From IMG/VR virus record IMGVR_UViG_3300026292_000602, positions 1-64,000 of that record: a stretch of DNA of 64,000 nt, one strand, 5' to 3'. The notes beneath the pieces were generated by a model that made no database searches, was not told where the DNA came from, and saw only the letters and a program-made list of their open reading frames with translations. This DNA is from a virus. Every line of letters starts with the position of its first letter. Positions within the stretch are counted from its first letter, which is position 1. This document shows, piece by piece, positions 8,869-13,577 of this stretch. The position numbers were made by a program, and so were the translations under genes.

Positions 8869-9276
8869 TTAAGTTATCCCGTGTTGTGACCAACGATACC
8901 AATATGGTTTTTGGTTAATACGTTGTTGTATGCGTTCTCTAATAATAGTAATGTCTTGATCTTTAGGTGTCCAATCCTTGTATAACTCATTAGGCCATTG
9001 TTCTGTTTTGAATTTACGAGTAGGATCAGGCTTCATACCTCTACGTTTCATTTCTGCAATAAGCTCTTTGTATCTTTTATGTAGATACTTGCCTTTATTA
9101 TAAAAGAACTTGACGTGTCCTTTGTTTAGTGTGAATTCTTTTGGAATGTCCGTTAATCCGTTTTTGGATTTTAATGATCGTTGTAATGCAGGGCCGACCA
9201 TAAAGATCTCTCTGTATTCTGCAACCAAGTGTTGATCTGACAAATCACCTGGGTCAACTAAATTAATCCTAGTCAT
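8869..9276 (-). CDS. denV: Pyrimidine dimer DNA glycosylase (T4 endonuclease V)
   Basis: MTRINLV...LSDQHLVAEYRE...GHVKFFYNK. Confidence 0.95.
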   Translation of the reverse strand: MTRINLVDPGDLSDQHLVAEYREIFMVGPALQRSLKSKNGLTDIPKEFTLNKGHVKFFYNKGKYLHKRYKELIAEMKRRGMKPDPTRKFKTEQWPNELYKDWTPKDQDITIIRERIQQRINQKPYWYRWSQHGIT

Positions 9277-9741: not shown

Positions 9742-10173
9742 TTAAACAGTAACCTTTCCTTCTTTAATTAGGCGTTCTCTATTACTTAAATGTTTCTTTG
9801 CTACTTCGTCTTTATTCTGGCCATGATAAGCAACACCATAACCATCAGTGATCATTTGTTTAGTAAGTTTCTTACCATCGATAATAAAGTCGCCAAGTAT
9901 GCGACCAAACTTACCTTTCTTATCCTCGCCACTTCTATCTATTTCTGTTTTAAGGACTTGACTTGAACCAACTGGCATAACATCTTTAACATATTTCTTA
10001 GATGCTAAACCAAATTTTTTTTCTACTTTATCTCTTGTTCTAGATTCTGGAGTATCAATCCCCATCATTCGAACACGTTCTTTTTTCATCCATACACCAA
10101 AGCCCAAGTCAATGTCCACATCAACTGTATCTCCGTCTACAACTCTAAGAACTTTACATCTGTACTCGTACAT
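9742..10173 (-). CDS. Thermonuclease (SNase family)
   Basis: VVDGDT, R..GIDTPE, GKFGRILG. Confidence 0.92.
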   Translation of the reverse strand: MYEYRCKVLRVVDGDTVDVDIDLGFGVWMKKERVRMMGIDTPESRTRDKVEKKFGLASKKYVKDVMPVGSSQVLKTEIDRSGEDKKGKFGRILGDFIIDGKKLTKQMITDGYGVAYHGQNKDEVAKKHLSNRERLIKEGKVTV

Positions 10174-10393: not shown

Positions 10394-10496
10394 TGGCTCT
10401 GGGGGTAGGACTCGAACCTACACGGTTAAATATATTGCAGTACATTTAGCCATACGAGAAACAATCGTACGTGTCTACCAATTCCACCACCCCAGA
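10394..10496 (-). tRNA. Atypical tRNA with GUU (Asn) anticodon, class II body and very long variable arm (103 nt)
   Basis: Acceptor UCUGGGG/CCCCAGA, G73, CCA; Leu/Ser-like D arm; anticodon stem UACGA/UCGUA with loop UUGUUUC; ~30-nt variable arm; T arm GUAGG-UUCGAGU-CCUAC. Confidence 0.85.
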
Positions 10497-10499
10497 TCG

Positions 10500-10658
10500 T
10501 TATTTTACGTTTACTATCCTCTTTAATAGTTCAACGTACTTTTTAATATCTTTACGTTTCCTTTTCTTAACAACTTTTGGGTTTTCTTTCTTTTCAGGCA
10601 ATATAGCACCTGTTGTAATATAGTGTAATGTTAAAGGATTGTTAGGATCGTAAGCCAT
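10500..10658 (-). CDS. Small basic hypothetical protein (52 aa)
   Basis: MAYDPNNPLTLHYITTG...KKRKRK; ATG overlaps the upstream stop. Confidence 0.6.
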   Translation of the reverse strand: MAYDPNNPLTLHYITTGAILPEKKENPKVVKKRKRKDIKKYVELLKRIVNVK

Positions 10659-11533
10659 TAACAAGCCGCCACTGGATCGTGTGTTAACGATGCCATTTGC
10701 TCTACTCTTGTCTCTGGGTTCTCTAGTCTATCTAATGCACTTATCATACGTGTCATTCCTATACCACCACCTACTCTTGGAAAGAAGTCGTGTTTTAAGA
10801 ACGTTTCTAGTTCTTCTTCTACTCTTTCTTTACCAAACTTGTCAAACAGTAAGTTACTGTAAGCACCTTCAGTAATTGTATGGAAAGTATCTCGCATTTG
10901 CTCTACATCAGTTGAACGTTCTGCACTACCTATTGTTTCCATTCCACCTAGTATTACATCTATCTTTTTACTTGTACCATCAGTATTTCTACTCATGTTC
11001 CAGAAAGGACTTGTAAACTCTGGGAAGTCTGTAATCATAGTTGTATAATAGTTTTCAAACATTTTAGTTTCATGCTCTGCCGTTAGCTCTCCTTCAATGC
11101 CGTATTCTTCTTGCCATTCGGCATAAGTTTTTTCTGTGGGCATCTTAAAGCCTAAGTGTTGACATAGTTCGTATTCCATCTTTTTAAGATCATCTATGTC
11201 ACCTGGCATTTCAAATTCAAACATTGGAAATATTATATCATGTCTACCTGGTATTGCATTAGGTTCTTGTCTGTAGGAAGTGGAGACACAAAAAAACCCC
11301 TTCGAAGAGGGGCGTGTAAGTAATTCGTATTCTAGCCACATCTGGCCCGTTTGCGGTAACGGCCAAACTTGTCCTGCATAATTGTATGTTGCTACATTAA
11401 AAGGATCTTCACACGCCGCCAGTATGCTTAATCTGTTTTGTGTGTGTACTTCTTCAAATCCTTTATTCAAAAAAAATGACCTTAAAAGGCCAACTGTCTT
11501 CGTAAATTTACTCGGGTTTATTAATTGCGTCAT
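10658..11533 (-). CDS. Class IIb aminoacyl-tRNA synthetase catalytic core (AsnRS / archaeal-type AsnA-like), no anticodon-binding domain
   Basis: Motif 1 FF..KGFEEVHT, motif 2 YRQEP..GRH..F, motif 3 GGGIGMTRM; begins directly at motif 1. Confidence 0.85.
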   Translation of the reverse strand: MTQLINPSKFTKTVGLLRSFFLNKGFEEVHTQNRLSILAACEDPFNVATYNYAGQVWPLPQTGQMWLEYELLTRPSSKGFFCVSTSYRQEPNAIPGRHDIIFPMFEFEMPGDIDDLKKMEYELCQHLGFKMPTEKTYAEWQEEYGIEGELTAEHETKMFENYYTTMITDFPEFTSPFWNMSRNTDGTSKKIDVILGGMETIGSAERSTDVEQMRDTFHTITEGAYSNLLFDKFGKERVEEELETFLKHDFFPRVGGGIGMTRMISALDRLENPETRVEQMASLTHDPVAAC

Positions 11534-11636
11534 TTCTTTTTTCCTTTTTGAGTTATACGTCAAAAAAAATTTAAGTCAAAAAAAAACTTGACTGTGTTTC
11601 TTCTGTCTAGGTATTTATCATCTAGGCGAAAAAACG

Positions 11637-12058: not shown

Positions 12059-13126
12059 TCAACCTAATAATGGATTTGATGGATTAACTTCTAAATACTT
12101 ACCCCATTCGGCGTAATAATGACGCATACCAACTTCATCGTGTATAGTATGATTCTCGTGTCTACCATGTAAAATGTTTCTACGTTCAGTACCTGGAGCC
12201 ATTGATGCACCTTGTCCTGTAACGCCTAGCAAGTCTTCGTGTAAGTTTCTACCAAAAGGTCCCCAAATAGTATTATGGTGTCTAATACGAGTTTGTCTTT
12301 CTTCTGGTGTATCTTTCTTTAGTCCGTATCCTCTAAATTCAATTAGTACACTATTAGGTCCTAAAGGAGTTACACTATCTGAACGATATGCACTACCACG
12401 TAGGTTAAAGTTAAAGCCAGGAAATAAGTCAACCATATACCATTGATTGGGCGGTAAGTTAGGAAAACTTAATTCTCCTCTATCACCTTCCTTATCAAAC
12501 TCTGTATAGTTGACAGTAAAAGAACTAACATTAACGTGGCCGTTATCGAACGCAATATTCTTACGAGCAAAGTATTCATCATTAAATCCTGTTACACGAT
12601 TGAAGTAGTGCATAAAGTCATGATAAAATTCACTGTTAGTATCGTGCCATAGTTTATAGTTAGTAGGAATGATTGCTTTATGATAATGGAATACTTCTAA
12701 TTCCTCTGTATCAATAGCATCAGCTATACAATCAAATGCACCTGCTGTCCATTGTTCTACAGTTTGATCAGGTTCAGGGTTTAATGTTACCCATATCATA
12801 CCTCCGTGCTTTACTTCCAAATGCAACTGTGGTTCAACAGTTACAATAGGTGCTCCTAATGTTCCTGCTGGTGTTTGATTACCATAGTTACGATATGCTT
12901 TAAATCCTTTGCCTGTATTATATACAAGAACATTAACACCTGCTATCTGTGTTGTTCTAAAGTCTAACTCATTTGGTAGTTCACTTTTATGACACATAGG
13001 TATCCAAACCTTACTAAAGATTTGTTCTTGTTCTTTATCGTGTATGTCTTGATTGTTATAGCACTCGCTACTAATATATTCTACTTTTGGTTCTGCTAAC
13101 CAATTTCTATGATTGCGTGGTGGCAT
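12059..13126 (-). CDS. Ring-hydroxylating (Rieske-type) oxygenase alpha subunit homolog lacking the Rieske cluster ligands
   Basis: E..IFSKVW..CH.SELP N-terminus, NYK...EFYH...H and later ED catalytic residues; no CxH...CxxH. Confidence 0.8.
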   Translation of the reverse strand: MPPRNHRNWLAEPKVEYISSECYNNQDIHDKEQEQIFSKVWIPMCHKSELPNELDFRTTQIAGVNVLVYNTGKGFKAYRNYGNQTPAGTLGAPIVTVEPQLHLEVKHGGMIWVTLNPEPDQTVEQWTAGAFDCIADAIDTEELEVFHYHKAIIPTNYKLWHDTNSEFYHDFMHYFNRVTGFNDEYFARKNIAFDNGHVNVSSFTVNYTEFDKEGDRGELSFPNLPPNQWYMVDLFPGFNFNLRGSAYRSDSVTPLGPNSVLIEFRGYGLKKDTPEERQTRIRHHNTIWGPFGRNLHEDLLGVTGQGASMAPGTERRNILHGRHENHTIHDEVGMRHYYAEWGKYLEVNPSNPLLG

Positions 13127-13204
13127 TCTACTTACTCCTTCTCACCTAGCTAGATATTTATTTGTAGTATTCTAAAAGTATTATAGGCTTTGTCTATGTA
13201 GAAA

Positions 13205-13505
13205 TAGACGCAACGTTTCTGTTGCTAGGTACGTTGCCAACCCCGAGTGATTATGCCGCTAGGGCAAAATCCTCATTTACCGCAGTTACTGGCGCAGAAA
13301 AATCTACGAAAGTAACGTTGGTTAGTGCATTATCGTTTGCATCTATAACGTTTGTTCGCGTTAACGGAGCTTACATCCCGGTAATCTCGTTCAACCTTAA
13401 CAAGCCAGTCGATCCTATTTCTACCCCGTAGGGGGTGTATTGAAATGGTGGAGTAGCCGGGTATCGCACCCGGGTCCTGCTCTTGTGACATACGTTGCTG
13501 TCATC
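13205..13505 (-). ncRNA. ssrA: tmRNA, circularly permuted two-piece type
   Basis: Acceptor piece ...CCCGGGUGCGAUACCCGGCUACUCCACCA (3' end 13446) lies upstream of the coding piece GGGGUAGAAAUAGGAUCGAC (5' end 13427); tag ANDNALTNVTFVDFSAPVTAVNEDFALAA at 13340-13251. Outer boundaries approximate. Confidence 0.93.
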
Positions 13506-13577
13506 AATTACAGTAATATTTAGCCTTAATATGCTACTATTATAGGAAAAGAGATAACTAATGTCAAAGGAAAAACA

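Follow-up and report, generated by a model that had tools for sequence, protein, structure and literature searches.

A class II-shaped tRNA(GUU) with a pyrimidine at position 37, encoded beside an AsnRS-like enzyme gene in marine phages

The stretch of viral DNA examined here (the window: 64,000 nucleotides, positions 1 to 64,000 of IMG/VR record IMGVR_UViG_3300026292_000602, an 82-kb viral fragment with 36% G+C and an estimated completeness of 23% by CheckV) encodes a tRNA with the anticodon GUU, in which position 37 is a uridine. We found that this tRNA belongs to a family of marine phage tRNAs that is held to its structure by strong selection, carries a pyrimidine at position 37 in most of its members and is encoded next to a gene for an enzyme resembling asparaginyl-tRNA synthetase (AsnRS). 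Judged from its sequences, the family joins a class II body of the tRNA-Leu type to the complete identity set of bacterial tRNA-Asn. Our leading, though tentative, reading is that it is a functional, phage-specific tRNA which may serve the adjacent enzyme as an amino-acid carrier charged by host enzymes.

Read on the minus strand from 10496 to 10394, the tRNA forms a complete cloverleaf with all stems intact, G73 and an encoded CCA end: UCUGGGG-UG-GUGGAAUUGGUAGACAC-G-UACGA-UUGUUUC-UCGUA-(31-nt extra arm)-GUAGG-UUCGAGU-CCUAC-CCCCAGA-G-CCA. Its acceptor stem (UCUGGGG/CCCCAGA) contains the pair U1:A72, its D arm is of the Leu type (GGUGGAAUUGGUAGACAC), its anticodon stem is UACGA/UCGUA and its T arm GUAGG-UUCGAGU-CCUAC. 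Within the anticodon loop, U32 lies at 10464, the anticodon at 10462-10460, U37 at 10459 and C38 at 10458; U33 is present and a purine at 37 is absent. The Rfam tRNA model (RF00005) matched the element at 47 bits, above its gathering score of 29, over model positions 1-71, with a 28-nt insertion placed in the variable region, while our own covariance model of the family (R1) gave 110.5 bits. Direct reading and the Rfam score thus bear out the preliminary description, made from the letters of this DNA before the present analysis, in its account of the loop, the intact stems and the encoded CCA. ARAGORN, which called ten other RNA genes in the window, did not call this one; it also misses most of the relatives with a long extra arm and mis-calls some of them (as "tRNA-Asp atc", "tRNA-Ile aat" or "tRNA-???"). 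A megablast search of the region against phage records returned no match, and a distant blastn search of the tRNA matched no more than pieces of Brevundimonas phage tRNA-Asn genes, from the T arm and the acceptor. An intron-containing tRNA was ruled out, as the insertion reported by Infernal sits in the variable region and its stem covaries.

Two samples of relatives were taken. With a pattern in which the acceptor and the D arm alone were fixed, tRNAs of this kind were found in 17 viral contigs, and a second sample, drawn through the neighbouring enzyme protein and so avoiding the bias of a tRNA pattern, yielded at least 591 confirmed viral loci, 80 of which were kept. The protein-sampled loci, the window and three cultured phages (the Prochlorococcus myoviruses P-SSM2, P-SSM5 and P-SSM7) together provided 58 distinct tRNAs, to which the counts below refer. 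U1:A72, G73, G34, U35 and U36 are each invariant (58/58), and acceptor pairs 2-7 covary freely while U1:A72 stays fixed. Position 37 is U in 43 sequences, A in 11, C in 4 and G in none; position 33 is U in 54, C in 3 and G in 1 (7% non-U33), position 32 is C in 45 and U in 13, and position 38 is A in 42 and C in 16. The resulting loops are CUGUUUA (23), UUGUUUC (13, the type found in the window), CUGUUAA (11), CUGUUCA (4), CUGUUUC (3), CCGUUUA (3) and CGGUUUA (1).

The stems are preserved throughout this variation. All stem pairs of the 58 sequences are canonical (100%), although each position shows 2-6 types of pair, and in a 55-sequence alignment with an explicit cloverleaf 99.7% of cells are paired and 20 of the 23 pairs have changed on both sides; none of 500 shuffles matched the observed level of covariation, and register-shifted controls collapsed. 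The tRNA is under strong purifying selection for structure and is not a decaying copy. Of the two things that the preliminary description had proposed to look for in homologs, stem covariation was found in all stems, and conservation of U37 in part: U prevails (43/58), with A in 11 members and C in 4. The extra arm also behaves as a structured element, its lengths being bimodal (13-17 nt in 25 sequences and 28-38 nt in 33, the window's included) and its stems covarying, with 97.6% of base pairs paired. All long extra arms share a ..GCAA.. loop and the 3' strand UAUUUA, and the 5' strand varies (alignment columns 62-80); this sharing may reflect the G-U tolerance of a U-rich strand, or the motif may be a candidate site for sequence-specific binding. 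The DNA strand opposite UAUUUA reads TAAATA, which resembles the core of a T4-type late promoter. Promoter and terminator scans gave hits at chance level only.

Few features of decoding tRNAs are conserved as strongly as U33 and the purine at position 37, which are also those that matter most to the ribosome. In line with this, all nine other tRNAs of the window have A37 (9/9), and only 2 of the 145 other distinct tRNAs called by ARAGORN in the related loci collected here have a pyrimidine there, one of which (L124) is a mis-registered call of the same tRNA family and the other (L090) an ARAGORN call taken as given. In the family itself a pyrimidine occupies position 37 in 47 of 58 distinct members (81%), a frequency far beyond chance; the earlier statement that a purine is normal at this position, and the loop abnormal for a decoder, therefore stands. 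Near-identical DNA (at least 0.87 of sampled words in common) was present in 14 marine runs, and contigs from two of these runs, which belong to different studies, span the tRNA without any reported difference in the loop. Because independent marine assemblies agree in the loop, and 25 loci carry an identical one, base-calling error, raised in the preliminary description as what might undo its observation, is excluded. The failure of ARAGORN and the atypical loop might still suggest a decaying pseudo-tRNA, a decoy or an assembly artefact; with perfect covariation in all five helices over 55 sequences, no relative with degraded stems, identical sequence in independent assemblies and occurrence of the family in hundreds of ocean phage contigs, we regard this as effectively excluded, in agreement with the preliminary description as regards decay. 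Its suggestion of a decoy for host anticodon nucleases did not hold up, since a decoy should mimic the host loop, and the family keeps only G34-U35-U36 and varies at positions 32, 33, 37 and 38.

The invariant positions are telling as to identity. Asn identity in bacteria consists of the three anticodon bases and G73 (PMC9976931), and the amidotransferase GatCAB has U1-A72 as its determinant when it amidates Asp-tRNA-Asn (PMC9976931, PMC2330236); G73 is moreover an antideterminant for LeuRS and TyrRS, as is C2-G71 for SerRS, and in yeast tRNA-Asn t6A37 stops aspartylation by aspartyl-tRNA synthetase (AspRS) (PMC9976931). All members of the family (58/58 at each position) have the set G34, U35, U36 and G73 that is read by AsnRS and by non-discriminating AspRS, as well as the GatCAB determinant U1-A72. 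What distinguishes them from a bacterial tRNA-Asn is the architecture, which is not class I (the extra arm measures 31 nt in the window and 13-38 nt across the family), and, in the window, U37 in place of A37 or t6A37. The canonical class I tRNA-Asn(GUU), for instance the 74-nt tRNA-Asn of the uncultured huge phage LR756508, has the same anticodon, U1:A72, G73, GGUUCGA-type T arm and 7-nt anticodon loop, and its loop CUGUUAA recurs in 11 members of the odd family; however, its variable loop is 4-5 nt long, its D arm is ordinary and its position 37 is A (t6A in characterised cases), whereas the odd family has a Leu-type D arm, its extra arm and mostly a pyrimidine at 37.

The body resembles that of tRNA-Leu. 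The window's own tRNA-Leu aligns well with the odd tRNA in the D arm, the base of the extra arm and overall shape, features common to bacterial tRNA-Leu in general (D arm GGAAUUGGUAGAC), and the best hits of model R1 in cellular genomes are ordinary tRNA-Leu genes (58-74 bits; 59 bits for the tRNA-Leu of the window). Unlike tRNA-Leu, the odd family has G73 rather than A73, U1:A72, and GUU rather than a Leu anticodon (G73 and GUU in 58/58), and over half of its members have an extra-arm stem of ~10 bp, longer than that of tRNA-Leu. Other identities were considered: a serine-charged mistranslator, against which C2-G71 and the Leu-type arm speak as regards SerRS; an allo-tRNA, which was rejected as the acceptor and T stems here have the standard 7/5 pairs; and a tRNA-Sec-like element, likewise rejected. 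A pattern search for canonical tRNA-Asn in genomes of the Candidate Phyla Radiation and of Rickettsiales gave nothing useful.

The second unusual property of the family is its gene neighbourhood. Among the 79 protein-sampled phage loci whose DNA extends downstream of the enzyme gene, 75 have the tRNA shortly behind that gene, and four (L115, L158, L160 and L167) have no such tRNA within 1.2 kb of the enzyme. In two of these, L158 and L160, a manA RNA motif lies downstream instead (Rfam RF01745, 58 bits, 2146-2343 on the minus strand). The enzyme family is very large in marine metagenomes (at least 8000 candidates, and at least 179 clusters at 50% identity with E < 1e-30). Its cultured carriers are P-SSM2, P-SSM5 and P-SSM7, in which a gene annotated as "tRNA ligase" is followed by an 85-88 nt "tRNA-Asn" with a class II shape, U1:A72, G73, the loop CUGUUUA (U37) and no encoded CCA; in P-SSM2 and P-SSM5 (complete genomes of 252 kb) this is the only tRNA. 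The "tRNA ligase" gene has been listed only as a sporadic one, in P-SSM2 and P-SSM7 (Sullivan et al. 2010, PMC3037559). In the window, a lysine-rich open reading frame (MAYDPNNPLTLHYITTGAILPEKKENPKVVKKRKRKDIKKYVELLKRIVNVK) stands between the two genes, its ATG overlapping the TAA stop of the enzyme gene (TAATG) and its end lying 3 nt before the tRNA; in relatives, no more than a short gap separates the tRNA here from where the enzyme match ends. It may be an insertion, either a putative small RNA-binding add-on or a chance reading frame.

The enzyme itself is predicted to be an AsnRS-like class IIb catalytic core. Counted from a TTG at 11563 its reading frame has 301 amino acids. Counted from the ATG the product has 291, the length also of those database proteins that are identical to the query over 97% of it. 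Pfam PF00152 matches residues 19-281 (2e-16); the protein belongs to PHROG 29758, whose function is not annotated, and falls far below every NCBIfam cutoff (TIGR00457, asnS: 30 bits against 342.6). When a profile of 43 diverse members was compared with the PDB, the best match was AsnRS (1e-14) and the next archaeal-type AspRS, with much weaker matches to an archaeal AsnRS-like asparagine synthetase (1.9e-6) and to EpmA/GenX (1e-5). An AlphaFold model (predicted local distance difference test 92, predicted template-modelling score 0.89) had AsnRS structures as its top Foldseek matches, and hhalign aligned the enzyme with the whole core of E. coli AsnRS (residues 141-447) at 96% probability. Two specificity positions are of the AsnRS type in the enzyme family (QMWLE and FEFE, versus QLFKQ and IDVE in AspRS): where E. 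coli AspRS has K198-Q and D233 (K198 and D233 take part in Asp recognition), the family has L-E and E. The amino-acid pocket thus appears to be that of an AsnRS, and the N-terminal anticodon-binding OB domain is absent, so that no domain able to impose an anticodon on the tRNA is present. The archaeal AsnRS-like asparagine synthetase (PDB 3P8T) likewise consists of a class IIb core of ~290 amino acids lacking an anticodon-binding domain, but the profile match to it is weak and partial by comparison with that to true AsnRS, and the present family is tied to pyrimidine genes, its phage members also to a tRNA.

The tie to pyrimidine genes emerged from the enzyme's occurrence in cells. A scan of species-representative genomes gave 263 enzyme loci, the closest of which (61-83% identity) lie in marine metagenome-assembled genomes (MAGs) of inconsistent taxonomy, mostly with the tRNA; we take these to be phage contigs binned into MAGs. 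Long chromosomal contigs of Patescibacteria, Rickettsiales, Aureispira and Weeksellaceae carry copies with 57-63% identity, which NCBI names "amino acid--tRNA ligase-related protein". None of ~28 cellular-type loci has an adjacent tRNA(GUU), and model R1 found no class II tRNA(GUU) anywhere in five enzyme-carrying cellular genomes, its best hits being tRNA-Leu. Since the enzyme co-occurs with a canonical AsnRS in the two Bacteroidota genomes among these five and with GatB in the other three, the cellular copies are not simply the AsnRS of the cell. The enzyme domain is fused to dihydroorotate dehydrogenase (PyrD) in one protein (P0125, 661 amino acids) and to orotidine monophosphate decarboxylase (PyrF) in another (P0138, 588 amino acids), and the Bandiella copy is directly followed by pyrF. 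PyrB was found in none of the five enzyme-carrying genomes, mostly MAGs (14/14 controls have it), and neither was PyrC of either type (0/5); four of the five have PyrD and PyrF, which are clustered with the enzyme in Aureispira and Bandiella. On this small sample, the link of the enzyme to pyrimidine synthesis holds. Among phages, relatives of the PyrE of P-SSM2 occur in only 13 of 50,697 phage records, the cultured ones being exactly P-SSM2, P-SSM5 and P-SSM7.

More distant copies in huge phages (45-49% identity) lack the odd tRNA, and one such phage encodes, at another place, a 74-nt tRNA-Asn of the ordinary kind whose loop is CUGUUAA. From this distribution of genes, the enzyme appears to work without the tRNA in cells, and its pairing with the odd tRNA appears to be an innovation of one marine phage clade. 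A Saccharibacteria chromosome (OZ246403.1; genome G001, locus L223) carries the enzyme with none of PyrB, PyrC, PyrD and PyrF detected; the enzyme cannot perform the same pyrimidine step there, unless a partner organism completes the pathway.

To place the changes at position 37 we used a quick IQ-TREE tree of the enzyme, in which many branches are weakly supported, and counted only changes forced by well-supported branches. The deepest branches (P-SSM2, P-SSM7 and L103) have U37 together with a short extra arm. Within the main marine clade, A37 requires at least four forced changes and C37 at least two, and neither is more clustered on the tree than shuffled labels; position 37 thus appears to flip repeatedly among U, A and C. 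As U37 is the majority state and is present in the outgroups and deepest branches, it is probably the older, ancestral state of the family and not a lesion. A37 in close relatives, which the preliminary description had given as a reason to doubt its observation, does occur (11/58), including at locus L128, whose anticodon stem is the same as the window's and whose loop is yet the canonical CUGUUAA; the doubt is borne out in part, but U37 is the majority state and is shared by the deepest-branching members. Near-identical enzymes may also be followed by different tRNAs, L141 having a long arm with CUGUUUA and L142 a short arm with UUGUUUC, and the same holds for the window compared with L112 and L113. 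Such differences behind near-identical enzymes suggest that the tRNA is exchanged by recombination or evolves faster than the enzyme gene.

Taken together, we consider it plausible, though short of probable, that this is a functional phage-specific tRNA acting as a carrier for the adjacent enzyme. Host enzymes would load it, either AsnRS or a non-discriminating AspRS followed by GatCAB, which read exactly the invariant positions, and the Asn (or Asp) so carried would be consumed by the adjacent enzyme, which in cells would act in pyrimidine synthesis without a tRNA. Selection would then be exerted by synthetase and amidotransferase recognition and not by decoding, so that U33 and the purine at 37 could drift while the anticodon stays frozen. 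We infer this role because the invariant positions are those that host tRNA-Asn enzymes read, while U33 and purine 37 are relaxed. The preliminary description had listed an aminoacyl carrier among its options; the idea now leads, on grounds other than those it gave, namely the enzyme linkage, the retained identity elements and the relaxed loop. Glu-tRNA is known as an amino-acid carrier in tetrapyrrole synthesis. The tRNA-Asn and tRNA-Gln of transamidosomes also present an aminoacyl-tRNA as substrate to a non-ribosomal enzyme and keep U1:A72 (PMC2330236, PMC9976931); all these carriers, however, are the ordinary decoding tRNAs of the cell, whereas here a structurally distinct and putatively dedicated tRNA stands beside the enzyme. 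A more specific version, which we find somewhat doubtful, is that the adjacent enzyme takes the activated asparagine of host-made Asn-tRNA and converts it into a precursor of pyrimidines, dihydroorotate for instance. The alpha-amine might capture CO2 and the side-chain amide close the ring, whereby carbamoyl-phosphate synthetase, aspartate carbamoyltransferase and dihydroorotase would be bypassed. If so, U37, and in some members the lack of U33, would be the sign of a tRNA no longer engaged in translation, and the family would provide a tRNA dedicated to nucleotide synthesis together with a new pyrimidine route.

Several observations weigh against a carrier. Ribosomal decoding of AAY codons would explain the invariant anticodon equally well, and the T arm, G18G19, the 7-nt loop and the combinations found at positions 32-38 are those of a normal elongator; with U33 kept in 54/58 and the canonical CUGUUAA in 11/58, many members could decode normally. 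The AsnRS-like specificity positions imply that the enzyme itself could charge the tRNA, and an extra D-loop base is a known antideterminant for GatCAB (PMC9976931), a point to be set beside the Leu-type D loop and long extra arm. The phyletic pattern of the pyrimidine genes comes from a small sample, and RNA runs gave no cover of the tRNA; a single metatranscriptome contig, 164 nt long, falls within the enzyme gene and is no proof of transcription.

These points lead to the readings in which the tRNA decodes. The enzyme and the tRNA could form a private pair, the AsnRS-like core charging the tRNA with Asn by recognition of its acceptor end (U1:A72, G73) and class II shape rather than its anticodon, and the product decoding AAC and AAU with U37 tolerated. 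The profile and predicted fold, nearest to AsnRS catalytic domains, the AsnRS-type residues at the two positions that discriminate AsnRS from AspRS, the strict gene order and the invariance of the anticodon, as decoding needs, are all consistent with such a pair, and its Leu-type body would be orthogonal, as G73 blocks LeuRS and TyrRS and C2-G71 blocks SerRS. We nevertheless judge it unlikely: relatives 57-63% identical function in cells lacking such a tRNA, in pyrimidine clusters and fusions and alongside either AsnRS or GatCAB, the copies of huge phages lack the tRNA as well, and a decoder would be expected to retain both U33 and purine 37. The tRNA could instead be an ordinary supplementary tRNA-Asn, charged by the host and used on the ribosome, whose linkage to the enzyme arises only from the draining of Asn or Asp by the latter or from shared transcription, with U37 and the body being near-neutral legacies of a tRNA-Leu-derived ancestor. 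This would suit the full host-type Asn identity set, the normal elongator features, the canonical loop in 11/58 members and the absence of visible tight coevolution between enzyme and tRNA (L141 against L142). Yet it is the sole tRNA of P-SSM2 and P-SSM5, Asn codon use in the window is unremarkable (5.2%, a demand that argues neither way), and the persistence of a class II body and pyrimidine 37 over deep divergence (phage enzymes down to 66% identical, outgroups with U37) would be left unexplained, so that we hold this reading to be decidedly unlikely.

Highly improbable, in our view, is a tRNA-Asn that evades nucleases, an option also named in the preliminary description; diversifying selection by host anticodon nucleases that cut tRNA-Asn would here have altered positions 32, 33, 37 and 38 and left the anticodon between them unchanged. 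The repeated and independent switching of loop states on the enzyme tree would fit, and there is a precedent in phage tRNAs whose loop mutations let them escape anticodon nucleases (van den Berg et al. 2023, PMC10264068); those are likewise phage-encoded, with a loop unlike the host type and the anticodon kept. The likeness, however, is confined to loop variability: here the body is remodelled too and the tRNA is tied to one enzyme gene, neither of which nuclease evasion explains, no nuclease targeting tRNA-Asn was identified in the likely hosts, and the other nine tRNAs of the window have ordinary loops.

The features discussed and the neighbouring genes are listed in the table. For the transfer-messenger RNA (tmRNA), ARAGORN gave the tag AVNEDFALAA in the window and a 29-residue tag in a relative (L006), so the tag reading is uncertain. 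The broad tRNA pattern also retrieved, at L009, L011-L014 and ~40 further viral loci, a highly repeated tRNA-like element with a Leu-type D arm, the acceptor GAAGGAA/UUCCUUC and a middle part of ~50 nt with no obvious anticodon arm; several other contigs have similar long tRNA-Leu-like elements, which may be intron-containing or otherwise unusual tRNAs.

Table. Coordinates of the tRNA, the adjacent enzyme gene and neighbouring features in the window
Feature	Position	Strand	Basis or remark
Class II-shaped tRNA(GUU), 103 nt	10394..10496	minus	Rfam tRNA model, own covariance model, covariation
Anticodon loop UUGUUUC, 7 nt	10458..10464	minus	read directly; same loop type in 13 distinct sequences, 25 loci
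Extra (variable) arm, 31 nt, ~10-bp stem, loop CUGCAA	10422..10452	minus	fold; long-arm class
Predicted AsnRS-like class IIb catalytic core without anticodon-binding domain	10658..11533	minus	291 amino acids from ATG; Pfam, profile, structure
Lysine-rich open reading frame, 52 amino acids	10500..10658	minus	between enzyme and tRNA
Staphylococcal-nuclease homologue	9742-10173	minus	neighbouring gene
Pyrimidine-dimer DNA glycosylase (denV-like)	8869-9276	minus	neighbouring gene
Ring-hydroxylating oxygenase alpha subunit	12059-13126	minus	only the catalytic-domain Pfam model matched
Permuted alphaproteobacterial-type tmRNA	13160-13571	minus	Rfam, 125 bits

The genes of this family have been in GenBank since 2005-2010 under the generic names "tRNA-Asn" and "tRNA ligase", and in the searchable literature we found neither the class II body nor pyrimidine 37, the relaxation at U33 or the link with the enzyme described. 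That a large natural family, spread over hundreds of ocean phage contigs and three cultured Prochlorococcus phages, should keep a perfect cloverleaf and a frozen anticodon with mostly a pyrimidine at position 37 on a class II body is unexpected, and makes it a natural experiment on the purpose of that position. In addition, the family draws attention to an enzyme-tRNA module of abundant marine phages that is as yet uncharacterised and would be either a natural anticodon-blind synthetase/tRNA pair, of interest to genetic-code engineering, or a tRNA recruited to nucleotide metabolism.

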